A program made the position numbers and the translations under genes. Under the pieces are notes generated by a model that did no database searches, had not been told where the DNA came from, and was given only the letters and a program-made list of their open reading frames with translations. A stretch of 64,000 nt of DNA, from assembly GCA_963674735.2 (NCBI GenBank), contig CAXXQS010000001.1, positions 480,001 to 544,000 on the forward strand, read 5' to 3'. Source of the stretch: Myxococcota bacterium (GTDB lineage: Bacteria > Myxococcota_A > SURF-8). Below are positions 40,741-61,181 of this stretch, in pieces (the stretch's first letter is position 1; each line of letters opens with the position of its first letter).

Positions 40741-40980
40741 GATCAGCTATCCTTTCCAAACTCTTAATACAAAGCTAAATATAGATCATAATACCACTGT
40801 TGTCAACAGGCTTAAATACAGGAGTGGTTGGTCCGCTAAACGTATGCAATTCAACGGCACAATGGCGGCACATCATGGATCTAGTCTATGCGTGACGACG
40901 ATCCGGATACGTGGGGCGACGGAAGGGGCATAAGTGAGCACTTCCGCGATGGCACGGGCACGCACTGGGGCACGAAGACT

Positions 40981-42444: not shown

Positions 42445-42811
42445 TCTGGCCTTGTAAAGACTGGGAACCGTTGGGCTTTCAGACCGGGTTTGACAAGTCA
42501 CCCCTCAAAATCCACTCACTATAGCCGTCAGACCGGAAAAAATGGGGTGCAGCAAAACTTTGGCACAAGCTAATCTCTTGTTTTCAAAGAGCTTTTCCAA
42601 TTTGACAAGTCTCCAGCATGAAAACGAGCCGCCAAAGATGCTTTATCTAGTGAAGATTATAGGAGATTATGCCTGTTGCACGACTTTTGCAAGCGAAATA
42701 TTCCGCAGACTTGTCAAATTATTAGCGAATATTTTATAATCCTGAATGATATCAATGGGTCGCACGACAGCTTATAGTCATTCTACATCAGAGCTATTTC
42801 TGTTGCACCCC
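42445..42811 (-). promoter_or_regulatory. CRISPR leader copy 1 (about 367 bp)
   Basis: near-identical to 47082-47449 and 58264-58630; abuts the first repeat. Confidence 0.9.
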
Positions 42812-42844
42812 CCCTTGGCATGTCCTGTTTTTTGAGATGATAAA

Positions 42845-43135
42845 CTAAATGATAATGGCTGTCGGTGGTCCGGGAAGCTGCGTATCTCCGAATAAACTCG
42901 TATTCTCGCGACAATCCTGACAGAGGCGATAGACCTTGACCGTGTCCGTCTCATCCAAAATGAACGACAACTCATCCAGCAGGCGCTTCAGGTTTGCGGA
43001 TGAACAAACAAGCTCATACACGCAGTCCTGGACCCGATTGCCTTTGAATTTCAAGGTCTCACGAATCATCCTTTGACGTGCATGGCTTTTCACGTCGTAC
43101 ACCACCACCCAAAGGAAAAACTTGGAATCAGGCAT
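42845..43135 (-). CDS. cas2: CRISPR-associated endonuclease Cas2
   Basis: VVYDV, GNRVQDCVYE, D.VKVY.LC..C motifs; directly after the cas1 fusion. Confidence 0.93.
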   Translation of the reverse strand: MPDSKFFLWVVVYDVKSHARQRMIRETLKFKGNRVQDCVYELVCSSANLKRLLDELSFILDETDTVKVYRLCQDCRENTSLFGDTQLPGPPTAIII

Positions 43136-43144
43136 CTCATACTC

Positions 43145-46033
43145 CTACCATTTCATTTGAAAAGCATCGAAGGACAGCTCCGAACCATCGATATACCGCC
43201 GCAGCGACATGGCCTGTCGATAGAGGTGGCCTCGCAAGGTATCTGTTTTGTTCGTGGTATCCGAAACCTCGCGGGCTAGCTGATCCTCGAAGCGAAGCAG
43301 CAATAGTTTAACCGTTTTCGCGGTCATCATCACTCTGTATGGGCCTTTTTGCTTCCTGACAAAATCCGAATTTTTGACTTCACCATGATTGACCGCATTG
43401 ATTGCAACCCTGTCAACGACAAAGCGAAACGGCTCCATCAGGTCGGCCGCCAAGGCGGCGTAGCGGCCTTTGCCCTGGTGCAGTACGCCAAGGTACGGGT
43501 CCAGACCGACCGAAAATATTGTGGTGTGCGTAAGTCTGAACAATTGCGTATACAGGAAATTCAGCATCACATTGACTGGATCTTCAGCACCGCGCGTGGT
43601 TCGTCCAGTAAAAGCGGGTAGGTTGCCTTTGAGCCATTGCGGCCATTGGGAGAAATAGGCGTGCGCAGCTTGCCCTTCGATGCCTCTTAGCATGTCCGGA
43701 TCGGCAGCCTTTTCGGCGCGTGAAATCATCGCGCTCAATTGTTCCAACAATCTCGGAACATTATCTTCCTTGCGGCGACGAGCCAGCATGCGCGTGTTGC
43801 GTATTTTGGCGGACACGAGCTTTCTCGACACATTTAAACTCCCCGCTGAATCCTCCGACCATTTCCATTGCAGCAAAGTAATCGGCGATGGCGAGCGCAC
43901 CTTGTCGGGCAAAACCAGTCCGAGAGGCGTTCCGTCCCATTTGTGCAAGGCTATCGGAATTCGGTGACGCAAGGCTCTCTGCATGACGGAACTACCGATG
44001 TATTTACCACCAAGCAGAACCAGTTCCGAGATTTCGGACCAGGCGACCATAAGCGGCGGATTGTCCTTGCGTTCGATATAAAGCCCGCGCTTTTTACCGA
44101 TCAGTTTTGCGTCTCCGCTGACCACGTAGATGGGCTTGCGCTCGATGCTCGGAGGAGCGATGGGCGCGTGCCAGCGATGATGTGATGCACGGTCTTCTTC
44201 TTTACGCTCCGGATCCTTACCCTTGCTTTCCACAAAATCAGACAACCACCCCGACAGTTTGACGGAATCGCCTGTCTGCATCGCATTGACCGGCATACTC
44301 TTCAACACTTCGCTGGTCTTGCCTGATTTCTCCACGTCCAACACCACGCTTCGGCAAAACAGGGAACCCAGAAATCGAAACCCCCTGTCGAATGCCGTCT
44401 CGGCTGTTTTATCATCATTCAAAGCCAAGCCGAGCTTGTGCAATTCCTCGGTCACCGTCTTTCTTGCAAGCTCAAGGTCGGATTCGTTTTTGCCCATGAT
44501 AATAAAGTCGTCGGCAAATCGAACCAGCCGAAACCCCTTGGCCTCGATGACTTCGTCGAACCGGTCGAGATAAAGATTGGCCAGGATAGGAGCGATGACC
44601 GCACCTTGAGGCAGTCCTTTGATACGCTCGATGTTTCGGCCTTCAAACGCCACGGGCGCTTTGCACCAGCAAAGCAGAGCCGCGACAACCGGATCGTCTC
44701 CGAAATAAGCTTCGAGGCGCAGCAGGAGTTTGTCCCAATCCACCTCGTCGAAAAAAGCTCGGATGTCGGCATCGAGAATATACTTATATCCCTGCTCACG
44801 AGCTTGTAGAACGCTGCGCTTGGCGTGGCGATGGCTCAACCCCTTGCGATAGGCGAAGCTCGAATCTTCCAACAGTTGCTCGATGGCGGGCTGCATTTCC
44901 TGCAAAACGGCACGCTGCAAAAAACGGTCGCGCATGGTGGGAATGGCCAAGGGGCGCAGTTTAACCTTACCGGTTTCCTCCTGTTGCTCGCGAATGACGA
45001 GACCCCGCAAGGGATTCGGGGCTACCTTGTTTTTTCGCAGAGCCGAGGTCAGCTTCGGCATGTCGGTGGTCAGGCTGTCCAGAAATTCTTCACGGCCGAC
45101 ATCGTCGATGCCCGGAGCGGGACCGGCTTCGGTCAGCGCCTGGCGTGCCAAGACGATATTGTCCATATCCGCCGAGCGCTCCAGGATCGTTCGTGCCGGT
45201 TTGGGCGGCCAGTCGCCGTGCGGCGCGTGACCGGCAACCTCGAAACGCCCCTGTCCCATATTGCGGCCTTTGCCGATACCGACGATACCCGCCAGCAGAA
45301 TCGGCAAGGCCCATTCGCCTACAGCCCGGTCGAAGTGCAACGTTATCGATCCCGATGAGCCCAGCAGCCGTTTTTTGGGATAGGCCACGTCCGTGCGGAT
45401 CAAGCGATTTTCGGTCAGCAGCACCGAATAACTTGCGGGCACCTGCAAATTTTTGGAGAAGAGCGCAGGCCACCACTCACGAACCCTTTGGGCGACCCGC
45501 TCGAAAAATTTGCCCGGTAAGAAGACATCCCCATCCATGAGAAACGTCTTGCTCGCAACCGGTGAACGCAGAATCAGCAAGGGGGAGAGAAAGCGGATGG
45601 TGATGTCCCGCTTTTTCGAGAGCGCATCGGCTTTGTCCTGAACCATGTTCAATGTCAGGGATTGGGGATGCGACTTGGATAGAGGGCGATTCGCGATGAT
45701 GTCGGTGACGCGTTCCACTTCGTAGTTGTTGCTAAAGGGAGCTTTGTCCGTTCGCCCGAAATCGGAGCTTGGCGGCGACGCGATCAGCCGCGCGAACCTC
45801 TGCGGTGAGATCGGCCCGCCGGGCGCAAGCGCGACGCCCAGATGATAAGGCTCGTTTCGCCGATAAACAACACGGCCCCGCTCGGGCGTATAGATGGCGA
45901 CACCCGAAGGGAAGTCTCTGGGCGTACCGAGACGATCCATCAAGGCGGCATAGAGCGCCGGATGGTGAAAGAAATGCAACTGTGTTTCGCGCGTAAAGCG
46001 CAAACGCAGCTTAAGGAGATGGAGAAGCTCCAT
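43145..46033 (-). CDS. cas1: Cas6-reverse transcriptase-Cas1 fusion
   Basis: Cas6 G-loop GIGKGRNMGQG; RT motifs PGID, RPLAIPTMRDR, DADIRAFFD, GLPQG, RFADD, FLG; Cas1 motifs GIEGQAA, DPVNVMLN, LGVLH, DLMEPFR. Confidence 0.93.
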   Translation of the reverse strand: MELLHLLKLRLRFTRETQLHFFHHPALYAALMDRLGTPRDFPSGVAIYTPERGRVVYRRNEPYHLGVALAPGGPISPQRFARLIASPPSSDFGRTDKAPFSNNYEVERVTDIIANRPLSKSHPQSLTLNMVQDKADALSKKRDITIRFLSPLLILRSPVASKTFLMDGDVFLPGKFFERVAQRVREWWPALFSKNLQVPASYSVLLTENRLIRTDVAYPKKRLLGSSGSITLHFDRAVGEWALPILLAGIVGIGKGRNMGQGRFEVAGHAPHGDWPPKPARTILERSADMDNIVLARQALTEAGPAPGIDDVGREEFLDSLTTDMPKLTSALRKNKVAPNPLRGLVIREQQEETGKVKLRPLAIPTMRDRFLQRAVLQEMQPAIEQLLEDSSFAYRKGLSHRHAKRSVLQAREQGYKYILDADIRAFFDEVDWDKLLLRLEAYFGDDPVVAALLCWCKAPVAFEGRNIERIKGLPQGAVIAPILANLYLDRFDEVIEAKGFRLVRFADDFIIMGKNESDLELARKTVTEELHKLGLALNDDKTAETAFDRGFRFLGSLFCRSVVLDVEKSGKTSEVLKSMPVNAMQTGDSVKLSGWLSDFVESKGKDPERKEEDRASHHRWHAPIAPPSIERKPIYVVSGDAKLIGKKRGLYIERKDNPPLMVAWSEISELVLLGGKYIGSSVMQRALRHRIPIALHKWDGTPLGLVLPDKVRSPSPITLLQWKWSEDSAGSLNVSRKLVSAKIRNTRMLARRRKEDNVPRLLEQLSAMISRAEKAADPDMLRGIEGQAAHAYFSQWPQWLKGNLPAFTGRTTRGAEDPVNVMLNFLYTQLFRLTHTTIFSVGLDPYLGVLHQGKGRYAALAADLMEPFRFVVDRVAINAVNHGEVKNSDFVRKQKGPYRVMMTAKTVKLLLLRFEDQLAREVSDTTNKTDTLRGHLYRQAMSLRRYIDGSELSFDAFQMKW

Positions 46034-46069
46034 ACCCAACTCCTTTCAGCGGTTCAAGAGATCAGTGGG

Positions 46070-47081
46070 CAGTCTGACTGACCATAGCTGTGACGATCAA
46101 CCCCCAGTGGGTGATAACGGTCGGAACGAGAGTTTCCATACCCAGTCTGACTGACCATAGCTGTGACTTTGAAGAGCTGGTTTACGCTCCTCCTCAGCAG
46201 GTTGTGTTTCCATACCCAGTCTGACTGACCATAGCTGTGACCTCTGGTGGTTTGGCCTAATTGTGCTGGTACTGTTTCCATACCCAGTCTGACTGACCAT
46301 AGCTGTGACATGGTCATCTTGTTGCTGCTGTGCGCCACGTAGTTTCCATACCCAGTCTGACTGACCATAGCTGTGACTCTGGCCGATGAGGACAAAAGCA
46401 CCCTGTCGAAGTTTCCATACCCAGTCTGACTGACCATAGCTGTGACAGATCACAACTACGATATCGTCAAGCGTGAATTGTTTCCATACCCAGTCTGACT
46501 GACCATAGCTGTGACGCGGCAAGGGACTTTTTACTCACACCGGCGACATGAGTTTCCATACCCAGTCTGACTGACCATAGCTGTGACCATAAACCACATG
46601 GTGTGGGAGGAATACCCGTAGTTTCCATACCCAGTCTGACTGACCCCATAGCTGTGACAATTTCTTCGGTTACGGCCCACATGACGATGACTGGTTTCCA
46701 TACCCAGTCTGACTGACCATAGCTGTGACCTCTGAAGCCGAAACCACCTAAAAGGAGGTGAAGTTTCCATACCCAGTCTGACCGACCATAGCTGTGACGA
46801 GGAATGCCAGATCGAAGAATGGGGGGTGGAAGTTTCCATACCCAGTCTGACTGACCATAGCTGTGACTAGGAGTAGGACTTGGACTTTTGGCACTTGGTG
46901 GGTTTCCATACCCAGTCTGACTGACCATAGCTGTGACTTGATTGTATATCTAGCATCTTCTAGTATGATAATGTTTCCATACCCAGTCTGACTGACCATA
47001 GCTGTGACGCTGGACGGCTCGAACACCTTGTGTGTTCCGGACTATGTTTCCATACCCAGTCTGACTGACCATAGCTGTGAC
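46070..47081 (-). CRISPR. CRISPR array 2: 15 repeats (trailer one truncated), 14 spacers
   Basis: same 36-nt repeat as array 1. Confidence 0.98.
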
Positions 47082-47449
47082 TCTGGCCTTGTAAAGACTG
47101 GGAACCGTTGGGCTTTCAGACCGGGTTTGACAAGTCACCCTTCAAAATCCATTCACTATAGCCGTCAGACCGGAAAAAATGGGGTGCAGCAAAACTTTGG
47201 CACAAGCTAATCTCTTGTTTTCAAAGAGCTTTTCCAATTTGACAAGTCTCCAGCATGAAAACGAGCCGCCAAAGATGCTTTATCTAGTGAAGATTATAGG
47301 AGATTATGCCTGTTGCACGACTTTTGCAAGCGAAATATTCCGCAGACTTGTCAAATAATTATCGAACATTCAATTATTCTCAATGATATCATGGGGTCGC
47401 ACGACAATTTATAGTCATTCCACATCAGAGCTATTTCTGTTGCACCCCC
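47082..47449 (-). promoter_or_regulatory. CRISPR leader copy 2
   Basis: near-identical to the other two leaders. Confidence 0.9.
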
Positions 47450-47483
47450 TTTAAAACAGAGAATCGGTGTAGATGGTGAAGCC

Positions 47484-49247
47484 CTAATTCTTGGGTAGCA
47501 ATCCTTTCTCGGTCTTGCATTTATCGTGGCAACTGACGATGCCGGAAATGCAATCGATGATGTCCGATCCTGTCCATATCAAGAACAAGGTAAGAGCTGA
47601 GAAAATGGGAATGCTGTATAATCCGATCGTCAGCAATAATTCTCCTTCGCTGCCTTCTCCCATTATCTCTTTGAGGTTCATGCCGAAGATCGAGGCGATC
47701 AGCGCCGGACCGGCCAGACCCAACATCGCAATATTCAGATAAGCGATGGAACCGAGCCTTCGCCCAACGGTTGCGTTGCTGAAATCGTGCAGGGCTTTGA
47801 TTTCTTTTTCGACCTCATCGAACAGCCGTTTGTTGCCCAAGTTGCGGCTCCACAGGTCAAACATTTCGATTCCCTGCTCCTGGCCGGTGACTTCGGAAAA
47901 CCAATATTTGTTGTGGAACTTCAGGAAGTCGGATCGCAAATCTTCCAATTCTCGGTGCAGCTTTTTGTTCTCCAACTTCCCTGGAGAGGTTGCTTGTTGC
48001 GCCAGTCGTGCCGCTCGATGGGAAAGATTCAGCAAAATCGCCCGCTGACCGATCAACAGATTTGCCATCTGGAAATACATCGAGTTGAAATGCTCCGGGA
48101 TCAATGTGCAGTTTGCATAACCGTTGCCGTGCAGCAAATACGTCCCGCTGTATCTTGTAAATCCATAATACGATCCCCAATCTCGAAAACGCAGATACAA
48201 GGACTGTTCCAGGCAATGGTCCCTGAATTCAGGATTAGAGGTATATTCCGTTGTGGAAGGATCGATAAAAATATATTGATAGAGCCGTTTTCTGAATTTT
48301 TCGCTTTGTGTCGTCAATTCGCCGAGGGGATTTCGAGTTTCACCGAACCGACACGGTCTGAACTCGCGTTCCCCAAAACCGGTGTCTGCATCATCAACAA
48401 TGGCTAACGAGCATACGAAGTTTCGCTCATCGAGGATCGGATTGAGGTTTTCGACCCTCAACGACTTTTTCAAATCCTTTGACTCTCCCGCACCGACAAG
48501 ATCTGCAAACAATTTTTCAATCCAGAATGTATAATGCTCGCCGATATAAGAGTTGGATTGCAGATCGTCTTCCTTGTCGGAATCGGGCTTTTGAGTGATG
48601 AATTCATCGAAATGCCTGCCAAACATTTCGGTACTGGCCGAATTTCCATCGGCCTTGACAATCTTGATCGAGAGAGGCAGTTCGTTTGCCCCTTTCTGCG
48701 CTTCGGACCAGTCTTTAACGGGATGTCCGGATACGTGGTCATAAACCTGATCGTATCCAATAAACGAAGGCCCTGAACGGCGTAATAGATTATTGATATC
48801 CAGAGCATCATCCAAACTCAATTGATTCGGGCTAGTGGCGTCATCACGAACATAAGATACGCCAAAGATAAGTGCGCCTACATCGAGATCGTAAAAATAG
48901 CCCATCACCCAATCGAGATTGACGAAGCGCGTTTTCTCTTTTTGAGATCTGCGCCACGATATTTCTATTTTCCAATTCTTGATTTTCTCTTCATAAACCT
49001 CGAAAGCCATCAGGCAAGGTCGATCCGACATACCGGTGCCAAACAATAGTTCTCTGGTATGAGGATGGAAATACTGATACTCGGCGAAAGTTTCAGGGTT
49101 ATGCGGTGAGATTTCAGGGGTGCGGAAAAACCACTCCCCCACAAAGTCTTTACGGCTAGTGGGATTATTTGAATCTTTCAGGGCGTTAAACGTACCCTGC
49201 TTCAATGAAAACGGAAAGTAGAACTGGGCTTTATAGAGGTGTAGCAT
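47484..49247 (-). CDS. corA: CRISPR-associated CorA-family membrane effector
   Basis: large soluble N-domain (FYFPF, YYGFTRYS, QRAILL, WFSEVTGQEQGIEMF); C-terminal 2 TM with SIFGMN (CorA GMN motif); follows cmr6. Confidence 0.85.
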   Translation of the reverse strand: MLHLYKAQFYFPFSLKQGTFNALKDSNNPTSRKDFVGEWFFRTPEISPHNPETFAEYQYFHPHTRELLFGTGMSDRPCLMAFEVYEEKIKNWKIEISWRRSQKEKTRFVNLDWVMGYFYDLDVGALIFGVSYVRDDATSPNQLSLDDALDINNLLRRSGPSFIGYDQVYDHVSGHPVKDWSEAQKGANELPLSIKIVKADGNSASTEMFGRHFDEFITQKPDSDKEDDLQSNSYIGEHYTFWIEKLFADLVGAGESKDLKKSLRVENLNPILDERNFVCSLAIVDDADTGFGEREFRPCRFGETRNPLGELTTQSEKFRKRLYQYIFIDPSTTEYTSNPEFRDHCLEQSLYLRFRDWGSYYGFTRYSGTYLLHGNGYANCTLIPEHFNSMYFQMANLLIGQRAILLNLSHRAARLAQQATSPGKLENKKLHRELEDLRSDFLKFHNKYWFSEVTGQEQGIEMFDLWSRNLGNKRLFDEVEKEIKALHDFSNATVGRRLGSIAYLNIAMLGLAGPALIASIFGMNLKEIMGEGSEGELLLTIGLYSIPIFSALTLFLIWTGSDIIDCISGIVSCHDKCKTEKGLLPKN

Positions 49248-49271
49248 ATTCCGATATCCCGATAATGAGAA

Positions 49272-50507
49272 TCACGAGTCCAGCTTCGACCATTGTTTCA
49301 AATTGCTGATGCAATCTTTGTATCGCTTGGATATGCGTTTAAGCACGCTATTTTTCTTAAGCAGCCTTGATGAAAGAACACTTCTAAATTCAGCTCGATC
49401 CGGGTCGGTCATGTTCAATATGGCTTCGTATACCTCGGCATTGCTTAACTCTTTCTCGAAAGCCTGAGCCTCTAGAGCCAGTTTGTCGGACTGTGCCTTT
49501 TGAGCCGGATCGGAAGTTAGGATACGCCTGACAGCGTCGTTGTTTTTCCACTCATTCGTTGGTAATTCCCGCATACGTCCATAACCAATGGCTGTTTTCG
49601 CTCCGATACCTTCTTTCTCCAAAGCCATACAAAGAATATCTTTCGCCCAGGAGCGCCAACCGGGTGCACCTTCCAATGCAACAAAGAAGCAGACATCGCT
49701 CCCCAAAGTGATGAACGGTATCGGATTTGGGCTGTCGTAGTCGGCGGGCGGAGGGACATCGCCTTTTGTCGCATCCGCCTGATAGTAATCCTGATGATGA
49801 ACGGTCATGACATCCGGCAAAAAGGGGCTTTTGTCGGTCGGGATCCACCATGCGTCATGAAAGACGATGCACCCGGCAGCATCCTGTCTGCCGAAAAGAT
49901 TGTCATAATACGTATACCCGTTTGAATCCACAAACCCCATATTTTCGTATTTCTTGATTTCCTTTTCGGTCTTTTCCTTATCCGGTCCAGATTTGTGCTT
50001 CGCTTCGTGCCAGCTTTCAGGACTCGGCAGAAAAGCGGATCGATTATCATCGGGCTCTAAATCGGTACACACGTTGATTGCGTCTTGCCCTTTGCCTTCA
50101 GCCTGCCAGCCTCCATAATACGTTTTACAGAAGTGCGACGCCAGCCCCTTTAGGGCGGAGCCGGGAATCATCGGTGCGCCGTAGGTACGGTTCAAGGTGA
50201 TACTGTTTTCCAAAACGCTATCCGCTCCAAGGCCGACAGCAGCCCTGGATTTGGATTCGATAATGACAACATCGGTATCATTCTTCAGTGAACGGCAATG
50301 ACGCATAAGCGCTAAGTTATAACAATCTGGTGCGCCGTAGCTATTCATAAGAAACTCGTACAGTTTCTTCTCAGCTGCATGCTCGTCTTTGAAAGCTTCA
50401 ACATACTTATCCAACAACAAACCTGCGTTGATACCTTCTTTCGGTTTTGGGTACCTAAGCTTGCTTAGAGCATCGCGTCTGGCATTCAGTCCGTTTTTCA
50501 TGGCCAA
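49272..50507 (-). CDS. cmr6: type III-B RAMP protein Cmr6
   Basis: VGLGADSVLENSITL, PMIPGSALKG, DVMTVHH, PNPIPF and GIGAKTAIGYG motifs. Confidence 0.93.
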   Translation of the reverse strand: MAMKNGLNARRDALSKLRYPKPKEGINAGLLLDKYVEAFKDEHAAEKKLYEFLMNSYGAPDCYNLALMRHCRSLKNDTDVVIIESKSRAAVGLGADSVLENSITLNRTYGAPMIPGSALKGLASHFCKTYYGGWQAEGKGQDAINVCTDLEPDDNRSAFLPSPESWHEAKHKSGPDKEKTEKEIKKYENMGFVDSNGYTYYDNLFGRQDAAGCIVFHDAWWIPTDKSPFLPDVMTVHHQDYYQADATKGDVPPPADYDSPNPIPFITLGSDVCFFVALEGAPGWRSWAKDILCMALEKEGIGAKTAIGYGRMRELPTNEWKNNDAVRRILTSDPAQKAQSDKLALEAQAFEKELSNAEVYEAILNMTDPDRAEFRSVLSSRLLKKNSVLKRISKRYKDCISNLKQWSKLDS

Positions 50508-50511
50508 CTCT

Positions 50512-50913
50512 CTAATCCGTGATCAGAATTTCCGCATAGCGTTTGTACCAAAGTCCGACATCCAAAGCTTTTTTTGTAAGCAGCATGTAATTCTCGCTTG
50601 AACAGTCATTACTGCTTAAATAACCATGAATAGTGTCGGTCGAAGACGCATTTGGCAATTCCAGGACCTCTTTAAGCTTTTCCAGGAAAACTTCGAAAGC
50701 TTTCGATTGCTCGGATTTCTTGTCGCTGGAGCCGCTGGCTTTGCTGTGGAAGAAGGCTACGGTCTGCATCAGGCCATTGGTTTTGACCAATATAGGAAAG
50801 CGCTTGCATACTCGGGAAAACTCGCCTTTCGGAAAGCCGCTCTTTTTGAGTAACTGGGTAAACTGGCCGTATATTTTCTGCGCATATACTTGGGATCGAA
50901 TCGTAAAAGCCAT
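50512..50913 (-). CDS. cmr5: type III-B small subunit Cmr5 (Cas11)
   Basis: FPILVKTNGLMQTVAF and WYKRYAE motifs; position in operon. Confidence 0.9.
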   Translation of the reverse strand: MAFTIRSQVYAQKIYGQFTQLLKKSGFPKGEFSRVCKRFPILVKTNGLMQTVAFFHSKASGSSDKKSEQSKAFEVFLEKLKEVLELPNASSTDTIHGYLSSNDCSSENYMLLTKKALDVGLWYKRYAEILITD

Positions 50914-50918
50914 GTCCG

Positions 50919-51845
50919 TTATCCTTTCGAAACCAGCCGCACACGACCGCGTCCTACTGTCGCTTTGCCACCCAATTGAATAGGGCGATCAGTAACAGTG
51001 GAATCGAATACGTAATCCAGTATTTGTTCGGGGCTATTCATGTCATTCAAGGGAGAGCCACCATCTTTGCCGCGCTCGAAGGAGTTGAAATGGGATCTTC
51101 CGGCAAGAGCCAGTCCCCATAATATACTCTCCGCCGGAAGCGCTTCTTCATACCAGAGAGCGCCTTTTTCCACGGTTTTCTTTTCGTCATCGATACGAAT
51201 ACGCGCGGCCACTTCTACGGCGTTTTGATAGAAGAATGAAAACACGTCATCACCGACAATAATGAACCGTTGTTTGAAATGATCCTGATATTCCTGGTCA
51301 TCCGGAAAAACAGAGGCTGCTATCGCCGCCGCCCAGTTGTCAACCAGTTCACAATATTGCGATCCGGTATCCACGCTCAGATCTAAATCCTCCAAATACA
51401 CCACCTCATTTCGGCAAGCGGCATTTTGATCGCCAACAAGGGCTTGCTTGCTTTCTGGAATTTTAGGAATTTCGAGGCTTGCATGATTAGAATCCCGTTT
51501 GTATCTTTGCAAGACTATCGGAGAAGATACCCAGGTAAAAACTCCATAGAATGAACGTACGGGAAGACATAGCAATCGTGCATCTCCGAATACTGTTGCA
51601 CCTGCATAGTCGGAGGCATTATCCGTGTCCGGGCCAAAGGCATTCATCACCCTATCCTTGACTCCGCCGTTCTTCTCCTTAGCCCAATGGCAATCTCGAA
51701 GTGCGCCCTTGATGGAGCTTCCAGGTACTATGGGTAAAGCCGTCGCCACCTCTCTTGCTATCGGGAGATCGAGGACACCCGATCCTTGCCCCGTTCCTGC
51801 GTGAAGAGCGGACAAAGCGTGTATATAATAAACGCGTTCAACCAT
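50919..51845 (-). CDS. cmr4: type III-B backbone / RNase Cmr4 (Cas7)
   Basis: LHAGTG..VLDLPIARE (catalytic Asp), PGSSIKG, LWYEE and QLGGKATVGRG motifs. Confidence 0.95.
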   Translation of the reverse strand: MVERVYYIHALSALHAGTGQGSGVLDLPIAREVATALPIVPGSSIKGALRDCHWAKEKNGGVKDRVMNAFGPDTDNASDYAGATVFGDARLLCLPVRSFYGVFTWVSSPIVLQRYKRDSNHASLEIPKIPESKQALVGDQNAACRNEVVYLEDLDLSVDTGSQYCELVDNWAAAIAASVFPDDQEYQDHFKQRFIIVGDDVFSFFYQNAVEVAARIRIDDEKKTVEKGALWYEEALPAESILWGLALAGRSHFNSFERGKDGGSPLNDMNSPEQILDYVFDSTVTDRPIQLGGKATVGRGRVRLVSKG

Positions 51846-51862
51846 AATTCGTTCTCCCGTTT

Positions 51863-52978
51863 CTAAGACCAAATTCCCCAAAGCGCAAGACCGAAACCAT
51901 TCTTACGATCCATCTCATTGTCGCTGATTGGCTTCATCCAGGCCTTGTTCAGAATCTTTTCGCAATCAGCTTCGTTTTCCATTTCGAGAAAGTAAATGCT
52001 TCCGGCAGGAACTAGCCGTCGAAGCGGCTTCTGACCGGTCTGCATATCCCAACCGGCTATGGGTGTCCATCTTGGAACAGCAGCGGATACAAGGCGAAGA
52101 GAAACGCCGACTACATCCCAGTGGACATATACTGATTTATCCTTGCCGGTAAAAACTTTAGGTAGGAAACCACCATTAAACAGGGCGGGGGTTACAAGTT
52201 GAAGCTTGATTTTTAACGACTCCCTCGCCTTGACTAAAAGCTCATCAGGAGAATCGCTTGGCCAGCTATCTGAATTCAGTTCTGTAAAACCCGCAAAGCC
52301 GCCTTCTCCTCCTATACGGTGAAAGATAGGTCCGGAAAACGCATTCAAGTCGGAGGCTGATACCGAAACCAGATACCCTCCTTCGAGTAGTTCATCTCCC
52401 CGCATTACTTGAGGATAAATGGATTCGCTCTGGAATAAGTGACTATCCTTGGCAGTATTGTTGTCGCCAATCGTGACATGCGTACGGTGTTCTGTTTCGG
52501 GTGAGTAGCCGTTTTCAAGAACATCCGACAAGGAAACTTGCTCACAGGCCAGCCACTTATATAGCTCCTTATCTCTCCAAAATAACGGAGGGTCACTCAT
52601 CGGCTTTCCGCCAGTCTGATTACTGCCTATTGGCAGTAACCCATCCGGCAAATTCATGCCTTCGCCATCTTTCAGCTCGAAGGGAGAAAGCCTCTTTATA
52701 GCAGTAGCCGGTAATATGGCATCAGCAGGTGCGGGAAAATAGTTGTGATCGCCGAGACGCAACACCGGGCCGTAAATCGACCAGTCCAGTACTCGTGCGA
52801 CTTCTACATCTGTGAACGAATAACCGAGCTGTTTTCCAAGCAAGGTTCTGATCGTACCGGTGGTAACGGAAGGATGAGGAAAAAGCTGAGTGCGCGCCGC
52901 GTCTCCAGTGTTGAAAGGTCGCGTATCCCTGAAAAGAAGTGGGCCGTTGGGTTGAATATGCAGGATAGCGTCCATCAT
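51863..52978 (-). CDS. cmr3: type III-B Cmr3 (Cas5)
   Basis: PLLFRDTRPF, PAPAD, IGGEG, LVTPALF, GWDM, VPAGSIY and GFG motifs. Confidence 0.93.
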   Translation of the reverse strand: MMDAILHIQPNGPLLFRDTRPFNTGDAARTQLFPHPSVTTGTIRTLLGKQLGYSFTDVEVARVLDWSIYGPVLRLGDHNYFPAPADAILPATAIKRLSPFELKDGEGMNLPDGLLPIGSNQTGGKPMSDPPLFWRDKELYKWLACEQVSLSDVLENGYSPETEHRTHVTIGDNNTAKDSHLFQSESIYPQVMRGDELLEGGYLVSVSASDLNAFSGPIFHRIGGEGGFAGFTELNSDSWPSDSPDELLVKARESLKIKLQLVTPALFNGGFLPKVFTGKDKSVYVHWDVVGVSLRLVSAAVPRWTPIAGWDMQTGQKPLRRLVPAGSIYFLEMENEADCEKILNKAWMKPISDNEMDRKNGFGLALWGIWS

Positions 52979-54696
52979 CAGTCTCCCTGCGCACTTTTTA
53001 TTGCTGCGTTTATTTGTGAAGCAATCTGTAAACTGCTGGATAGCTGATATAGATCCTCCACATTGTTTATCCGAGATAGAAACTTACGAGCCACCTCTTC
53101 TCGAAAATCTTTTTCAATGACTTTCATCTCCAGCAGCCTTACAACCTCCTTGTGTAACAAATCAGATGTCACCCATGGCAGTTGCTCGTGCTTGACCGGA
53201 TCCACGTATGTATGAGCAAGATTCTTAAACCCATAGAGGGTACGGTGAGAAATGAGACCCTTTCCGATCCATTCCAGTTGCTTTTTCATCTGCGCGGCGG
53301 GATCGTTCGTCCACGGGCATGTCCAGATCGTAGGTGCTCCGGAACGCTTGTAAAGAGCAACTGTTATTTTCCCTCTTTTGGCTGTTCGCTCGGCATCGTG
53401 GGCGAGCCGCAACATATCTCCAGCCATGGGCGTGAGGGCGTGCACAATGGCGATGCCAACCGACAATGTTGCTCCCGATAGATGCTTCTCGAATTCTGCT
53501 TGAAGTTGTTTCGCACAGTCAAAGGCGTAATCGAGGGGCAGGTAAGCGACCACATCATCACCACCGGCGTATATCAGACTACCCAGGCAATTGGTTTCAA
53601 CGATAGTTCTTGCTTCGGCGGCAAACCTTGACAGGGCGATTGAGAAATCACGATGCTCTTTCAGCGACATGTTCTGCGCTCGTGCAGTCATGTTGTCGCC
53701 ATCGCAGGCGAGAAAGGCAAGATAAGGAGAGGGCTCTTGCCCAAGCTTTATTAACTCACTTTTGATTTTATCGAAAACACCATCAACCGGAATTTCCTTG
53801 TTAATCGTATCAAGTCGCTGCTTCATCAAGAGTTCGCCATCGAATGGAAATGCCTCAAAACGCGGTTTAAGTTGATCCGAAACCTCGACAAGCGATTTCC
53901 ACTTCGAGAGCTTATCATCAAGGTTGCTTTTTATTATGCTGGCGATCTTTTCCCGTGTTTTTTTTCGCTTATCGTTGTCCCTGCTTCCTCTAACCCAAGG
54001 ATCGACGGCAATGCGCGAAACCGATGGGTAACGCGTCTGCTCTCCTGCTCCAAGGCGCTTCACGACACCGGGCATATCCAAGTGCTCCCCCGGTTTGATG
54101 CCCCGCCAAAGTCTGTTGTTGATGATTTTTTTGTTACCCTTTTCAAGCACTGTCTCCCGGCATCCATCGAGCGAAGACTTCTGAACCTTGGATGGACCGA
54201 ACCATTGCTCGAACTCACTGGTGGCTTCACGCGCATTCAAAAGGCGCTCCACTTTTGCACGAGCAACCGGGTAGGCGGCAATATCGCCGTTACCGTCGAA
54301 TCGAACCCATGCAGAAAAAAACTCAACGAGGTTTTCGTCTTCGAGTTGTTTCTTCCATGTTTCCTGTTTGATGCCGATTGAATCACCATGCTTCTGTAGG
54401 ATATTCCTTGCGAATTCACGCCAACAGGTAACGGCGACATTGCAGCCGATAGCAGAAGCATCGGCGGGGTCGACACCATCGTTGAGATGCAGTAATATTC
54501 TATCGGAAACCGGTGAGTCATCTTCGAAGCTGGCAGGCACAACGGGCTCAGCCCCTAAATCGATGATGGCTTTGGCCGCCTTGCGCGCCATTTGTGCCAC
54601 GAACCATGAACTGAAATGCAAATCGCGCGTACGCCTGGAGGCCTTGATAAAATCGAACACGGGACCCACAGAAAACATGAAAAGGTGACGGCTCAT
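52978..54696 (-). CDS. cas10: type III-B Cas10/Cmr2, HD-less, intact Palm2 GGDD
   Basis: begins at SVGPV.DFI..SRRTRDL (no HD domain); DGDNM, IYAGGDDV and TLSVGIAIVH motifs. Confidence 0.95.
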   Translation of the reverse strand: MSRHLFMFSVGPVFDFIKASRRTRDLHFSSWFVAQMARKAAKAIIDLGAEPVVPASFEDDSPVSDRILLHLNDGVDPADASAIGCNVAVTCWREFARNILQKHGDSIGIKQETWKKQLEDENLVEFFSAWVRFDGNGDIAAYPVARAKVERLLNAREATSEFEQWFGPSKVQKSSLDGCRETVLEKGNKKIINNRLWRGIKPGEHLDMPGVVKRLGAGEQTRYPSVSRIAVDPWVRGSRDNDKRKKTREKIASIIKSNLDDKLSKWKSLVEVSDQLKPRFEAFPFDGELLMKQRLDTINKEIPVDGVFDKIKSELIKLGQEPSPYLAFLACDGDNMTARAQNMSLKEHRDFSIALSRFAAEARTIVETNCLGSLIYAGGDDVVAYLPLDYAFDCAKQLQAEFEKHLSGATLSVGIAIVHALTPMAGDMLRLAHDAERTAKRGKITVALYKRSGAPTIWTCPWTNDPAAQMKKQLEWIGKGLISHRTLYGFKNLAHTYVDPVKHEQLPWVTSDLLHKEVVRLLEMKVIEKDFREEVARKFLSRINNVEDLYQLSSSLQIASQINAAIKSAQGD

Positions 54697-56114
54697 AACG
54701 ACACCTTCTTACCATCTGTTTTTGATTTGAAATAATGGCAGAATGCCTCGGAAGCGGTCAATGCCTTCTGTTCATTCATCAATATTATTTTTTCTGCGGA
54801 ATCGGCATTCTCCATTTCTCGCCTTTTCAATGTATAATCGTGTCGATCATCGAATTCAAGTTTGACCGATCCGGGAAGATTCCAAACATGCGAAACATTA
54901 AGATTCAAGACAATGGGCAAATATGTTTGTTTGCCACCGATTTTGATGCTCATTACTTTGATTATCAATCGTGAGGCATATCGGTCTGTACCTGCAAAAG
55001 TCAGCTTTGCATTTGCTAGTTCATCCGGTCTGCCGATAAAGCGAAATTGAATAGGCAAGCCGAAATCCGCCCTAGGAAAATAGATGCGACCTGGATGGCT
55101 CGGTGTATGTCTTCCCCAATTCACCGTTGAAAATCCTTGTCGAATTTCTCTCAGTGAATCAGGTTCTGGCCAGCGGCTTCTACCCAATTTAAACCTGTTA
55201 CGCGGGTCGCTTCCCTTGTTGCGACCAACTTCTTCCCCCTGCCTGAATTCTTGAAAGAGATTGATCGCCTTTTTCCAGGCATCCTTGGCGGAATTGCAGG
55301 ATGCGCCGACATACAGATGGCTTCCGCTCAGTCGGGGCCATGGGCTTGTTTCTGAGTTGTCCGGTTTTGTAAATGCTTCGGATAGCTGATCGCAATTTTC
55401 TACGGAAAGTGCATCAAGAATTCCAGGAGGTTCGATGGATTCGAGTTCCAAGCTCCCCAATCCTCGGCGCGTTCTCGACCCATATCCTCCAAATAGAATC
55501 CATGCCTTGAGTGCTTGCGAGATCTGCTCACTCAGCCCGCTCTCGTTCGGAAAGGAAATGATCAATTTAAATCGAGCATCCTTGCGCACAAATTTCGTAG
55601 CCAACTCGTTGCCTAAATTGTCAGCCTTTCCGCGTTCTTCATTGGGTTGCTGTAATGTCCATAATGCGTAGGCCGGCCCTTCTTCAAACCTTGCAAACGC
55701 CTTGGGCGGCCCGCCACTATAATTTTGCGGATGAACGCCCGACCTTACGTATTCTCCCTCGGAAAGTACTTCCGTTTGCACGATAACTTTCGACGGCTCT
55801 CCTTCATCGTCGCCACTCGCACCGCCGAAAAGCTCACGTTCACGCACCAACAGCGCCTTATCATCTTTTTGGGTCGCTCCTGCCGTGGCGCGCCACCAAA
55901 ACCGAAGATGGCCTTTAACGGTTGAAGAACGAATCTCCGCAATCTCGGGTGTTGATCCCGCTTCGAACCCGCCGCCGAATATCGGAGTGATGACCTTAAG
56001 GTTGGCCGCGATTTCATGGTGCTTCCCGGAATATCGCTGGTCCACGTCATTGGCAATTGCGCTAGGATCCAACTGTAGGCCGGGACCGTTGACCGGAGTT
56101 CGGAAAGGCGACAT
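54693..56114 (-). CDS. cmr1: type III-B RAMP protein Cmr1
   Basis: ITPIFGGG, KGHLRFWWRA, FGGYGSRTRRGLG, SRWPEPD and FGLPI motifs; start could be 56165. Confidence 0.93.
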   Translation of the reverse strand: MSPFRTPVNGPGLQLDPSAIANDVDQRYSGKHHEIAANLKVITPIFGGGFEAGSTPEIAEIRSSTVKGHLRFWWRATAGATQKDDKALLVRERELFGGASGDDEGEPSKVIVQTEVLSEGEYVRSGVHPQNYSGGPPKAFARFEEGPAYALWTLQQPNEERGKADNLGNELATKFVRKDARFKLIISFPNESGLSEQISQALKAWILFGGYGSRTRRGLGSLELESIEPPGILDALSVENCDQLSEAFTKPDNSETSPWPRLSGSHLYVGASCNSAKDAWKKAINLFQEFRQGEEVGRNKGSDPRNRFKLGRSRWPEPDSLREIRQGFSTVNWGRHTPSHPGRIYFPRADFGLPIQFRFIGRPDELANAKLTFAGTDRYASRLIIKVMSIKIGGKQTYLPIVLNLNVSHVWNLPGSVKLEFDDRHDYTLKRREMENADSAEKIILMNEQKALTASEAFCHYFKSKTDGKKVSL

Positions 56115-56292
56115 AACTAACCCCAACGATAGGTTTTGGAAAGCTGGAATTGATTGACTTCTCAACTGTACATTCTATTTATCATATTCAAAATGGCGTT
56201 TGCAAGATTATTCTTATGCATTTTAATCCAATTGCTTTAGTCTGCAAAACAACAAACCACTAGAGTCACGCAACAAGTCACCTACCGGGCGA

Positions 56293-57795
56293 TTAAATAT
56301 CATCATTTTTCAATATCATTCCCGCTTCTCTCGGATCGAAATCTTCAGGAAAGATTGTAGCACGAATTTCAGATTCGGTGTTTGGGTATATGATTTCAGA
56401 GTTATAAATCGCACCCTTTAGTTGAGCAGACTTAAAGTGCACCACACCTGAAAGATTTGCACCCCTTAAGTCCGCTTTCTCCAGATACGAATTGGTGAGT
56501 TCCGCCCCTTCCATATTGGCGTCTGATAAATCAGCACCATTCAGTAGCGCTCTCTGTAATTTACAGCCTTTCATGATGGCTCCTTGCAGAATGGCATTCT
56601 CAAGTTGAGCCTCTTGTAGGTTCGCCCTATCCAAACAAGACCCGCTAAGATCAGTATTCATTAGTTTGGCATTTACCAGCTTCGCATCTTCGAGGTGTAT
56701 GCGCTCCAGTTTCGCACTTTGGAGGTCTTTTCCCGAGAGATCAACACCTTTGAAATGAGCATCACGAAAATCTACCTCTTTAAATACAGCTTCTTTTAAA
56801 TCTACATTTTCCAGGGTTGCCTTGTTAAAGAAAGCATTTTCTAAGTTAGCTCCTCTGAAATCTACGTTTTTAAACTTTGCCCCAATTAGTTCGGCTCTTT
56901 GCAAGTGTGTTTTTTGCAATTCTACGTTTTCTAAAACAGCATTTATAAAAAACGCCCTTTCCAAGTGGGCATCATTCATTGTTGACTCTCTCACGTTCGC
57001 ATTATTGAATGAAGCACTTTCTAAACGGGCACGGTCCAAATACGATTTGTGCAAACAAGCCGAATGAAAACTTGCTCCTCCAAGGTTGGAATCTCCAAAA
57101 TCAACGCTACTGAAACTTGAATTTGATAAGTTAGCATTTCGTAAATAAGTACCGCGCAAGTCAACAATTTGCTTGTTTCTATCAGCAAATTTTAAACTCT
57201 TATCTCCAAGAAGAGTCAAAGCCGCTTGCACCTCTGCTTTAGGCGGCATACTTGATTCTTCATCTATTAAGCCAGACAGTCCATTGATGGCATCTTGCCA
57301 AGGCACAGTCGCTCGGATAAATGCCGATAGATATTCAACGATTATCTTACTATCACCAGGTGAGTCTTTTGCTATTCGCTCAAATTGTAGGATAGCCCCG
57401 ATTTTAGTTATAGGCTCTTGGTCTCCCAATAGCTCAAACGTTTTTGCCAAACGTTCTATAATAAGTCTTTTCTTCTCTTGCTCTACAGTATGCTTGTGCT
57501 TTTCCGCTGCAAGATTTGCGTTCGTTTGGGCGATATCTATTTCTTCATCCTTGTGCTTCACCCTCCAGATCCAAGTCAGAATTAGAGAGGGTGAAGCGGC
57601 AATGCCCGAAATCAGCACCCAAGCTTTCGCGTCAATCAGAAAACAGTACAGTGAGTCAAAGTTGACAACGTAGCTATATACTATGCAAGGAGCAACAACG
57701 AGAATGGCTCCAGTCACAGCCATGCAGATGATCCAACATGTCCTAGATTGTCCATTTCGTGTTTTAGATTCTGAAGATTCTAGATTCTCTTGCAT
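56293..57795 (-). CDS. membrane-anchored pentapeptide-repeat protein
   Basis: 2 N-terminal TM, coiled coil, helical IGAILQFERIAKDS..LSAFIR domain, then a long A(D/N)Lxx repeat tract; AT-rich; alternative start TTG 57825. Confidence 0.88.
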   Translation of the reverse strand: MQENLESSESKTRNGQSRTCWIICMAVTGAILVVAPCIVYSYVVNFDSLYCFLIDAKAWVLISGIAASPSLILTWIWRVKHKDEEIDIAQTNANLAAEKHKHTVEQEKKRLIIERLAKTFELLGDQEPITKIGAILQFERIAKDSPGDSKIIVEYLSAFIRATVPWQDAINGLSGLIDEESSMPPKAEVQAALTLLGDKSLKFADRNKQIVDLRGTYLRNANLSNSSFSSVDFGDSNLGGASFHSACLHKSYLDRARLESASFNNANVRESTMNDAHLERAFFINAVLENVELQKTHLQRAELIGAKFKNVDFRGANLENAFFNKATLENVDLKEAVFKEVDFRDAHFKGVDLSGKDLQSAKLERIHLEDAKLVNAKLMNTDLSGSCLDRANLQEAQLENAILQGAIMKGCKLQRALLNGADLSDANMEGAELTNSYLEKADLRGANLSGVVHFKSAQLKGAIYNSEIIYPNTESEIRATIFPEDFDPREAGMILKNDDI

Positions 57796-57867
57796 CGTAT
57801 TCTTATCCTTTAGAATATCACCCAATCACATAGTCTGTTACATATGCTTGCTTGGTGCTGTCTTGTT

Positions 57868-58263
57868 ATTTCCATACCCAGTCTGACTGACCATAGCTAT
57901 GACTGCCGAATTTGTTGCTGTATAAGCAGTACTCCTTGGTTTCCATACCCAGTCTGACTGACCATAGCTATGACGATACTCCGCTTGGAGGTACCGACTA
58001 TTCGCGTTGGTTTCCATACCCAGTCTGACTGACCATAGCTATGACACTTCTACGGATAGAGGGTGCGACGGCACCATCGAAGTTTCCATACCCAGTCTGA
58101 CTGACCATAGCTATGACTTTGGTAGTAGTATTAATCGTCATCGGGCTTTAAGAGTTTCCATACCCAGTCTGACTGACCATAGCTATGACGTCTTTGCCGC
58201 TGTTCCTTCCTGGGATGGCGCTACCTGGTTTCCATACCCAGTCTGACTGACCATAGCTATGAC
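57868..58263 (-). CRISPR. CRISPR array 3: 6 repeats, 5 spacers (plus a degenerate repeat at about 57820-57841)
   Basis: variant repeat GTCATAGCTATGG... (C5>T) in all six copies. Confidence 0.97.
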
Positions 58264-58630
58264 TCTGGCTTTGTAAAGACTGGGAACCGTTGGGCTTTCA
58301 GACCGGGTTTGACAAGTCACCCCTCAAAATCCACTCACTATAGCCGTCAGACCGGAAAAAATGGGGTGCAGCAAAACTTTGGCACAAGCTAATCTCTTGT
58401 TTTCAAAGAGCTTTTCCAATTTGACAAGTCTCCAGCATGAAAACGAGCCGCCAAAGATGCTTTATCTAGTGAAGATTATAGGAGATTATGCCTGTTGCAC
58501 GACTTTTGCAAGCGAAATATTCCGCAGACTTGTCAAATAATTATCGAACATTCAATAATGCTCAATGATATCAAGGGGTCGCACGACAGCTTAAAGTTAT
58601 TCCATATAAGATCTATTTCTGTTGCACCCC
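58264..58630 (-). promoter_or_regulatory. CRISPR leader copy 3
   Basis: near-identical to the other leaders; distal end overlaps the DMT gene stop codon. Confidence 0.9.
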
Positions 58631-59539: not shown

Positions 59540-59798
59540 TGCATCCTGCTCAGAACCGTTTTCTCGGACATTGCATGTTTATCCTTCGGCGCAGCATGTT
59601 TCCGTACAAAAGAAAAATAGCCTTCGTTGTCGCTATTATGAGAGAACGTATACTGAATAGCCTGTCGGGATCATTCCGCCATTTGTAAACGATTCTGCCT
59701 ATTTCCTGCCCTGTGATCCTATTTGAGGGAACCTTTTTCGTCAAGCAATCTTCTTTTGGGCGGCTTTCCAACTTCCAAGCTAAAGAGCTTAATCGAGT

Positions 59799-61160: not shown

Positions 61161-61181
61161 AGGTTCGGATTATGTGCTATA

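Follow-up and report, generated by a model that had tools for sequence, protein, structure and literature searches.

The window (the whole 64,000-nucleotide stretch of DNA analysed) contains what is likely a complete and probably active type III-B (Cmr) CRISPR–Cas locus of the CorA-associated class, for which a SAM-AMP mechanism is proposed. From its sequence, the locus would work like the Bacteroides fragilis system, as a variant that lacks any known degrader of the signal. The gene order, strand and content given in the preliminary description agree with the open reading frame (ORF) calls and with Pfam, NCBIfam and PADLOC searches: the minus strand carries three CRISPR arrays, cas2, a Cas6-RT-Cas1 fusion, corA, cmr6-cmr5-cmr4-cmr3-cas10-cmr1 and a gene for a pentapeptide-repeat membrane protein (Table 1). 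The range it assigned to the locus, 42845–58630, encloses all of these parts except leader 1 and array 1, which lie outside it at 40974–42844. The functional reading offered there also holds as far as sequence can carry it, apart from the novelty of the module combination and a defence acting on the membrane only, both of which are taken up below. The Cas10 and Cas1 of this locus are the only ones in the genome, which contains no other CRISPR system.

Table 1. Components of the CRISPR–Cas locus, in window coordinates
Feature	Position	Strand	Description and evidence
CRISPR array 1	40974..42444	-	21 repeats, 20 spacers; degenerate terminal repeat at 40974
Leader 1	42445..42844	-	about 365 nt common to leaders 2 and 3
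cas2	42845..43135	-	96 aa; Pfam PF09827 E 4e-13, TIGR01573 E 6e-11
Cas6-RT-Cas1 fusion	43145..46039	-	964 aa, single ORF; domain and 7kft matches
CRISPR array 2	46059..47081	-	15 repeats, 14 spacers
Leader 2	47082..47483	-	leader alignment
CRISPR-type CorA effector	47484..49247	-	587 aa; PADLOC CorA
cmr6	49272..50507	-	411 aa, helical C-terminal extension; TIGR01898 E 6e-39
cmr5	50512..50913	-	133 aa; PF09701 E 4e-21
cmr4	50919..51881	-	320 aa from first start, Met13 possible true start; TIGR02580 E 2e-68
cmr3	51863..52978	-	371 aa; PF09700 E 5e-54
cas10/cmr2	52978..54696	-	572 aa, no HD; DGD 332-334, GGDD 378-381, D65, E157
cmr1	54693..56165	-	490 aa; TIGR01894 E 1e-13; PADLOC Cmr1 E 4e-33
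Membrane-anchored pentapeptide-repeat protein	56293..57825	-	510 aa; PF00805 E 4e-59
CRISPR array 3	57868..58263	-	6 repeats, 5 spacers
Leader 3	58264..58630	-	leader alignment

The six cmr genes are contiguous and form one operon, and each of their products exceeds NCBIfam or Pfam cut-offs. The NCBIfam equivalog scores are 231 bits for Cmr4 (cut-off 87), 134 for Cmr6 (51), 57 for Cmr5 (28), 107 for Cmr3 (100), 147 for Cmr2 (79) and 52 for Cmr1 (29). The same set of modules recurs in three other loci (L086, L087 and L002). Every non-overlapping ORF of at least 90 aa between 40.9 and 58.6 kb was assigned, and none of them is a CARF, SAVED, Csx1 or NucC gene, as had been noted before; apart from the CRISPR-type CorA, no effector was seen at the locus. 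The earlier suggestion that the system defends only through membrane disruption is overstated, because Cmr4 is full length and has an Asp-containing motif, ...GSGVLDLPIARE..., near its N-terminus, so that cleavage of target RNA is probably retained. The Asp in this motif is presumably the catalytic Asp of characterised Cmr4 proteins.

The arrays are built on a 36-nt repeat that has 38 matches at no more than three mismatches, compared with 0 in 100 shuffles. Counting degenerate and 38-nt variants brings the total to 42 repeats, which enclose 39 spacers of 32–42 nt, 36 of them unique. Arrays 1 and 2 share a pair of adjacent spacers and also a variant repeat of 38 nt, and the repeats of array 3 carry a G>A variant near the 5′ end (minus strand). 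When aligned, the three stretches of ~400 nt upstream of the arrays are on average 94% identical per column and hardly vary from column 35 onwards. In each array the degenerate repeat lies farthest from the leader, and on the minus strand the repeat terminates in ATGGAAAC; both features fit transcription of the minus strand. The Cas6 domain would process these transcripts into crRNAs with an 8-nt tag derived from the ...ATGGAAAC repeat end. Outside the arrays, no spacer matches its own genome over more than 20 nt, and no protospacer for those of arrays 1 and 2 was found in 50,697 phage records.

The adaptation module is a Cas6-RT-Cas1 protein with cas2 starting 10 nt downstream. Its Cas6-like domain spans residues 1 to about 280, the RT about 285–600, with an FADD motif, and Cas1 about 630–964. 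Pfam identifies Cas1 (E 5e-65) and RVT_1 (E 1.5e-33), the Cas6 portion matches weakly (E 3e-4, below cut-off), and PADLOC Cas1_IIIb matches the fusion at E 1e-92. The solved chain 7kft, the same three-domain fusion, is a remote match to the window protein (whole chain E 1e-87; aligned residues 9–147 and 222–954). Its rfaddfii segment aligns to the RT motif RFADDFII, an xADD motif, and the Cas1 ‘EG’, ‘H’ and ‘E’ catalytic positions are aligned and identical; neither the RT nor the Cas1 catalytic motif is disrupted. The Marinomonas mediterranea RT-Cas1 also belongs among the Cas6-RT-Cas1/Cas2 integrase complexes. Cas6-RT-Cas1 and Cas2 would insert spacers at the three near-identical leaders and, by analogy with characterised RT-Cas1 enzymes, may draw them from RNA as well as from DNA.

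The preliminary description regarded this adaptation module and the CorA effector as not having been characterised together, but their pairing is published and was found repeatedly here. The legend to Fig. 1b of Chi et al. 2023 (PMC10600005) includes CorA type III-B loci with fused RT-Cas1. Of two later papers, one discusses RT-Cas1 in B. fragilis adaptation (PMC11346440) and the other traces both RT-Cas1/Cas2 and CorA in type VI-B1 back to type III systems (PMC11662929). Of the 145 non-identical CorA loci that we sampled, 22 place corA no more than 10 kb from an RT. The preliminary description had itself named such an outcome as one that would refute it. That corA and RT-cas1 often occur together is already known, and the locus therefore opens no new category.

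The absence of an HD domain from Cas10, as first described, is confirmed: Pfam, NCBIfam and PADLOC searches found none, and the Cmr2 N-terminal domain begins at residue 6. The sampled CorA-linked Cas10s are too short to accommodate this domain, since all 104 ORFs of at least 400 aa in the sampled loci measure 431–645 aa. The palm domains are recognised by PF22335 (E 5.5e-27) and the GGDD motif aligns to that of solved Cmr2 chains. Two acidic residues of B. fragilis Cas10, D70 and E151, have been tied to SAM-AMP synthesis by Chi et al. (PMC10600005). A profile built from 30 CorA-linked Cas10 sequences matches the solved chain 9lq5_B (E 4e-120), where, counted on the printed alignment, the columns of D65 and E157 hold D70 and E151 and the GGDD ends in D328/D329, in agreement with the residue numbering of B. 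fragilis Cas10 used by Chi et al. Among 76 non-identical CorA-linked Cas10s of at least 500 aa, the D65 column is Asp in all 76 and the E157 column is Glu in 71, Asp in four and Tyr in one. In 9arw, another Cmr2 that lacks HD, Asn and Lys occupy these columns. Judged from these two acceptor-site residues, the window Cas10 most likely makes SAM-AMP rather than cyclic oligoadenylate. In the mechanism we propose, the Cmr1-6/crRNA complex would bind complementary foreign RNA, which Cmr4 would cut, and target binding would activate the HD-less Cas10 to make what is most likely SAM-AMP from S-adenosylmethionine and ATP.

The candidate receptor for this messenger is encoded straight after cmr6. The window CorA matches the PADLOC CRISPR CorA models (E 7e-70 and 3e-64) and has no Pfam or NCBIfam match; the canonical CorA model PF01544, which three of 17 listed homologues carry, does not match at E 0.01. 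Two C-terminal hydrophobic helices flank a GMN motif. A structure model of moderate confidence (pLDDT 64) has CorA 8tmb_A as its top Foldseek match in the PDB, at a level that is not significant (E 0.05, TM 0.14/0.21). As suggested by the B. fragilis and type III-D2 systems, SAM-AMP would bind the cytoplasmic domain of CorA and disturb the membrane, so that the infected cell is arrested or killed. CorA could instead move ions and modulate interference rather than kill in response to a messenger, as reported for type VI-B1, where the CorA linked to CRISPR carries divalent cations and reduces interference by Cas13b (PMC11662929). We consider this very improbable: the GMN motif that recommends it occurs in just two of 10 clade CorA proteins, the canonical family model fails to match, and no effector at all would remain for a Cas10 that lacks HD but has an intact GGDD.

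In a tree of 140 CorA proteins, the window CorA belongs to a small clade on a long branch, made up of five loci (the window, L002, L086, L087 and G006), with a stem branch of 1.74 and support of 1.0. RT-Cas1 adjoins the locus in four of the five and is fused to Cas6 in three. None of the five loci encodes NrN or DEDD as judged by our own HMMs, which were positive in 82 (NrN) and 25 (DEDD) of the fetched loci, and neither was found in a six-frame translation of the window's own genome. A lyase-like family that adjoins corA in Clostridial loci is also absent at all five. Genome-wide, each of the three profiles matched neither of two clade genomes (G000 and G006), and for each profile three of three positive-control genomes were matched, one lyase control weakly (E 0.008). 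The missing NrN-type degrader, on which the preliminary description did not comment, is more unusual than the missing CARF, SAVED, Csx1 and NucC effectors. The five loci may represent a distinct III-B CorA clade with a SAM-type Cas10 acceptor site and no SAM-AMP degrader of a known family, in which CorA might work without degradation, or an unrecognised off-switch or a modified messenger might operate.

The Cas10s of the clade have a feature that may be related to this difference in off-switch or messenger. A palm-2 Lys, present in 93% of 71 other CorA-linked Cas10s, is Leu in all five, and further clade-specific substitutions affect otherwise conserved positions; these changes raise the possibility of a different product. 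The divergent clade could accordingly use another messenger (cOA, SAM-AMP2 or other) sensed by its CorA, which would explain the absence of known SAM-AMP degraders and suit the long clade stem. Published work also speaks for it: a CorA clade that senses cA6 has been proposed by Hoikkala et al., type III-D2 produces SAM-AMP2 besides SAM-AMP (PMC13294483), and Makarova et al. 2025 (PMC12669027) suggest that exceptions to the degrader rule may signal new messengers, as well as being places to find new sensors and nucleases. We nonetheless think a different messenger unlikely, as both SAM-linked acidic residues of the acceptor site are kept in all five members and the locus shows neither a CARF nor a SAVED sensor. 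SAM-AMP is the messenger we favour. Counting against the mechanism proposed above are the Cas10 changes of the clade, the absence of a degrader, the non-significant fold match of the CorA model and the scarcity of GMN among clade CorA proteins.

The surroundings of the locus bear on whether it functions. GC content is 0.42–0.50 across the effector part vs about 0.55–0.63 in most of the window, and the flanks contain transposases, a TA pair (ParE/Phd) that is not common to the clade relatives, and a primase/relaxase-like element. The pentapeptide gene is absent from all four clade relatives, and homologues of its product occur in CorA-less relatives; though in operon position, it is a host-lineage gene and not a cas accessory. 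Base composition and mobile flanks speak for a horizontally acquired, non-functional or crippled copy, in which CorA signalling without a degrader fails to protect the cell; when the B. fragilis system was reconstituted in E. coli, immunity likewise needed a SAM-AMP-degrading enzyme (PMC10600005, PMC12255297). We consider this reading very improbable as well. Every gene is intact with its catalytic motifs present, the three arrays hold 36 different spacers behind conserved leaders, and five loci distant from one another keep the degrader-less arrangement, a sign of selection.

[quoted passage not shown] 1b legend; PMC11346440). The window differs in several respects: NrN, DEDD and lyase genes are missing from both locus and genome, an NYN gene was not seen, corA follows cmr6, and Cas6 is joined to RT-Cas1 rather than being a separate protein. 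Sequence distances are large: the window Cas10 is 14–19% identical to 25 aligned Cas10s outside the clade, and its CorA is 22–34% identical to that of non-clade loci over most of its length, with a highest best-segment identity of 42% in a partial match to L023. As to gene placement, 93 of the 163 sampled loci have a Cas10 ORF no more than 3 kb from corA. The type III-D2 CorA system, which makes SAM-AMP and SAM-AMP2 (PMC13294483), also has CorA without NrN, DEDD or lyase and a TA pair beside the locus, but that pair is of another family (VapBC-like rather than ParE/Phd), and fused Cas7s take the place of six separate Cmr genes. Type VI-B1 encodes RT-Cas1/Cas2 and CorA together, as in the window, but with Cas13b as effector, no Cas10 and no messenger, and its CorA is reported to dampen interference (PMC11662929).

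The need for a SAM-AMP-degrading enzyme in the B. fragilis reconstitution has been termed ‘enigmatic’ (PMC12255297). If the reading of the clade given above is true, a natural degrader-less system would bear directly on this unexplained requirement. The compact III-B/CorA locus in the window, with no known degrader and no other CRISPR system in its genome, may provide a natural test case for whether degradation is needed.

The 64-kb window contains a real type III-B CorA system, complete and equipped with a Cas6-RT-Cas1 adaptation module. Open reading frames, family matches, repeats and leaders confirm the gene content and order set out in the preliminary description, and the feature lies where that description placed it, except that array 1 and leader 1 fall below its proposed start at 42845. 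The Cas10 and Cas1 of the locus are the only ones in the 5.26-Mb genome, and all 42 repeat cores found genome-wide lie within the locus. Searches of the same genome for SAVED and Cas_APE2256 are uninformative, since their positive controls matched nowhere.

Features of the locus and its surroundings (window coordinates; minus-strand CRISPR features are given 5' to 3')
Feature	Position	Strand	Remarks
IS1-like transposase	32353-33474	minus	array-1 side
rve-type integrase	38660-39736	plus	array-1 side
ParE toxin (98 aa) and Phd/YefM antitoxin (96 aa)	40157-40740	minus	E 2e-17 and E 3e-17
leader 1 and array 1	42844-40974	minus	
cas2	43135-42845	minus	
Cas6-RT-Cas1 fusion, 964 aa	46039-43145	minus	7kft match
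leader 2 and array 2	47483-46059	minus	
corA	49247-47484	minus	PADLOC CRISPR CorA models, E 7e-70
cmr1, cas10/cmr2, cmr3, cmr4, cmr5, cmr6	56165-49272	minus	all above curated NCBIfam or Pfam cut-offs
pentapeptide-repeat membrane protein, 510 aa	57825-56293	minus	
leader 3 and array 3	58630-57868	minus	
EamA/DMT-family transporter	58613-59539	minus	ends where leader 3 starts
stand-alone CAP12/Pycsar-type TIR domain protein, 153 aa	59799-60260	minus	PF10137, E 1e-37
Replic_Relax-like gene (weak)	60297-61160		beside TIR gene
DnaG-like primase	61041-62309		near TIR gene

With three mismatches or fewer, the 36-nt repeat is matched at 38 sites, compared with none in 100 shuffles. Once degenerate and 38-nt variants are counted, the three arrays total 42 repeats with 39 spacers of 32–42 nt, of which 36 are unique, and the leader-distal end of every array is formed by a degenerate repeat. 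The leaders are near-identical 365-nt segments in direct orientation (94% identity over 402 aligned columns). Arrays 1 and 2 have in common two consecutive spacers together with the intervening 38-nt repeat variant, which carries a CC insertion (41943-42048 and 46588-46693), and one spacer is present twice within array 1 (41010-41043 and 41301-41334). Together, the common spacers, the duplicate and the direct leaders point to exchange or copying of segments between arrays by recombination or segmental duplication. No spacer matches the rest of the genome over more than 20 nt, and a search of 50,697 phage records with the spacers of arrays 1 and 2 was also negative. An Rfam scan of the 40–60 kb region yielded no family reaching its gathering score, and a promoter scan of leader 2 gave three sites compared with 1.4 ± 1.1 in shuffled sequences.

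The fusion protein aligns with the solved Cas6-RT-Cas1 chain 7kft in two stretches (residues 9–147 and 222–954; E 1e-87), and in this alignment both the FADD motif of the RT and the catalytic positions of Cas1 are conserved. The CorA protein has no match in Pfam or NCBIfam, and comparison of its sequence with the PDB gave nothing significant. At its C-terminal end are two hydrophobic helices separated by a GMN motif, which is kept in just 2 of the 10 members of the window's CorA clade. A structure predicted from 10 sequences (pLDDT 64, pTM 0.68) has no fold match at E ≤0.001; the best match in the PDB is a CorA (8tmb_A), and it is weak (E 0.05, TM 0.14/0.21).

The combination of corA with RT-Cas1 is already described and frequent. 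RT is among the gene labels in a figure of membrane-linked type III loci in Shmakov et al. 2018 (bioRxiv 270033), where panel A depicts CorA loci. Our sample of 160 CorA loci comprises the 80 best matches from genomes (out of 199) and the 80 best from metagenomes (out of 167). To locate RT and Cas1, the corresponding domains of the window served as tblastn queries (one query each, E 1e-5, up to 10 kb of flank); RT was detected in 26 of the 160 loci, 15 of which have it adjacent to a Cas1 of the same strand, counts that are lower bounds because many contigs are cut and each domain was represented by a single query. After removal of rows with identical CorA sequences, 22 of 145 loci have RT, a total that also drops 3 of 165 ORF sources lacking a CorA ORF and leaves out the window, L085 (the other locus of genome G006) and L084 (a second copy of the G006 locus). 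Where any adaptation gene was detected the fraction is 22/32, and with at least 5 kb on each side it is 10/48. The novelty proposed for the pairing in the preliminary description, to be given up if such loci were already common and described, therefore fails: the pairing is published and recurs across non-identical loci.

The window Cas10 is a 572-residue protein that opens with the Cmr2 N-terminal domain, so an HD domain is absent, as the preliminary description had noted. Cas10 ORFs were pulled from the CorA loci with an iterated HMM; those of at least 400 residues, found in 104 loci, all span 431–645 residues. In an alignment of 76 non-identical Cas10s of at least 500 residues, conservation of acidic residues in the N-terminal part is confined to two columns. 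The column of window residue D65 is Asp in all 76, and that of E157 is Glu in 71, Asp in four and Tyr in one. A profile of 30 CorA-linked Cas10s matches the solved chain 9lq5_B (E 4e-120), which has D70 and E151 at these columns and a GGDD motif ending in D328/D329, as counted along the printed alignment. These are exactly the residue numbers used by Chi et al. (PMC10600005), who found that D70N/E151R abolished SAM-AMP synthesis and favoured pppApA. By this agreement of residue numbers 9lq5 would be the Bacteroides fragilis Cas10; a literature search for 9LQ5 and 9ARW returned nothing relevant. In 9arw, a further Cmr2 without an HD domain, the two columns are Asn and Lys. The window Cas10 thus carries the sequence signature of a SAM-type acceptor site. 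The earlier assignment to the SAM-AMP type stands as far as these conserved columns go, with the product itself inferred, and the locus probably functions as the SAM-AMP system of B. fragilis does.

When 140 CorA proteins were placed in a tree, the window protein grouped with those of four other loci (L086, L085 of genome G006, L002 and L087) with support of 1.0 and on a long stem (1.74); a word-index search found only nine other proteins at least 38% identical to it. The gene order cmr1-cas10-cmr3-cmr4-cmr5-cmr6-corA is the same in all five loci. RT-Cas1 adjoins the system in four, being fused to Cas6 in the window, L086 and L087, while the fusion gene of L002 is interrupted by the locus edge; G006 has no RT-Cas1 within 20 kb. 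This clade may already appear in the supplementary figures of PMC11662929 or in the trees published by Chi et al. and by Hoikkala et al.

The clade Cas10s keep all catalytic motifs, and in all five the palm-2 Lys of a YYKxP-like motif is replaced by Leu (window residue 421). This Lys is kept in 93% of the other 71 CorA-linked Cas10s and is also found at the corresponding position of Pyrococcus furiosus Cmr2 and 9arw. Other substitutions in the clade include His for Tyr two residues before this Leu (window 419), a non-Gly residue four positions ahead of D65 (window 61) and His or Phe in place of a conserved Trp (window 27).

A hidden accessory gene conserved in the clade was ruled out by all-against-all comparison of ORFs of at least 80 residues, in which only cas genes and shadow frames were common to the five loci. 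Among the unassigned neighbour ORFs of L002, L084/L085, L086 and L087, Pfam identified no nuclease or phosphodiesterase; these ORFs matched VWA, tubulin-like, transposase, IstB, AAA or PAS kinase families, or nothing. The pentapeptide-repeat protein was likewise considered as a new CRISPR accessory and rejected, and its gene is not part of the CRISPR system. The loci of the four clade relatives gave no match to its N-terminal part or to its repeats, and homologues of the N-terminal domain (31–46% identical) occur in four of five same-family genomes, none of the five having CorA, and, across the phylum, in 10 of 301 genomes. The G006 homologue is on a different contig from the cmr-corA locus. 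Matches of this protein to the NCBIfam models for Qnr, PipB2, HetL and HalA are far below cut-offs and appear to be driven by the repeats.

GC content is 0.42–0.50 over corA, the cmr genes, the pentapeptide gene and array 3 (46000-60000), compared with 0.567 at RT-Cas1 (44–46 kb) and about 0.55–0.63 over most of the window; the effector and adaptation modules may not share a common history. The locus is flanked by transposases and a primase/relaxase-like element, and this setting, together with the GC contrast, is consistent with a locus that was put together from modules and acquired horizontally. The TIR domain accounts for nearly the whole of its protein, and the TIR, Replic_Relax-like and primase genes probably represent either a mobile element adjoining the CRISPR locus or a second defence gene there. 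In G006 the EamA/DMT gene was not found at the equivalent position; there the gene upstream of cmr1 encodes an acyl-CoA dehydrogenase.

One of the usual neighbours of corA in other loci is a 230–300-residue protein encoded just upstream, with an invariant D85-H86-H87 (a cluster of 61 loci); the same domain is fused to the CorA N-terminus in 26 of 27 CorA ORFs of at least 700 residues. Pfam did not recognise the CRISPR NrN, and we identify this family as NrN because its residue numbers agree with those mutated in NrN by Chi et al. (PMC10600005). A DEDD exonuclease (Pfam Rv2179c-like) neighbours corA in 21 loci, and three Clostridial-type loci encode a 125-residue lyase-like protein with Glu72 in a GGER motif, which we would guess to be the C. 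botulinum-type lyase. With family HMMs, 82 loci were positive for NrN and 25 for DEDD; neither family was detected in the five clade loci or in a six-frame translation of the window's own genome. Profiles for NrN, DEDD and the lyase-like family, searched at E up to 1, also found nothing in that genome or in G006 (94% and 96% complete, respectively); positive controls were matched in three of three genomes per profile, one lyase control weakly (E 0.008).

The clade is not alone in lacking NrN and DEDD: among 76 non-identical loci flanked by 1.5 kb or more on each side, 22 have neither, and some of these carry a lyase-like gene and some a Card1-like gene instead. In several Campylobacterota-type loci, a gene just upstream of corA (L015:8762-9850, with similar genes in L037, L038 and L113) encodes a 362–385-residue protein that is not NrN; it matches a Card1-like endonuclease domain (E 3e-11) and, weakly, the CARF domain of Card1. 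A CARF nuclease adjoining CorA would be odd for a pathway using only SAM-AMP.

CorA is called 'obligately associated' with degraders by Chi et al. (PMC10600005). A degrading enzyme is a feature of the characterised CorA family, whereas the window locus and its small divergent clade are without a known one. The type III-D2 CorA system (PMC13294483) likewise lacks NrN, DEDD and the lyase, and its authors suggest that a neighbouring toxin–antitoxin module degrades the messenger. The ParE/Phd pair directly past the distal end of array 1 belongs to another family than the III-D2 module and is not common to the clade. The need for SAM-AMP degradation has been called 'enigmatic' (PMC12255297), and exceptions to the degrader rule have been flagged as leads by Makarova et al. 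2025 (PMC12669027).
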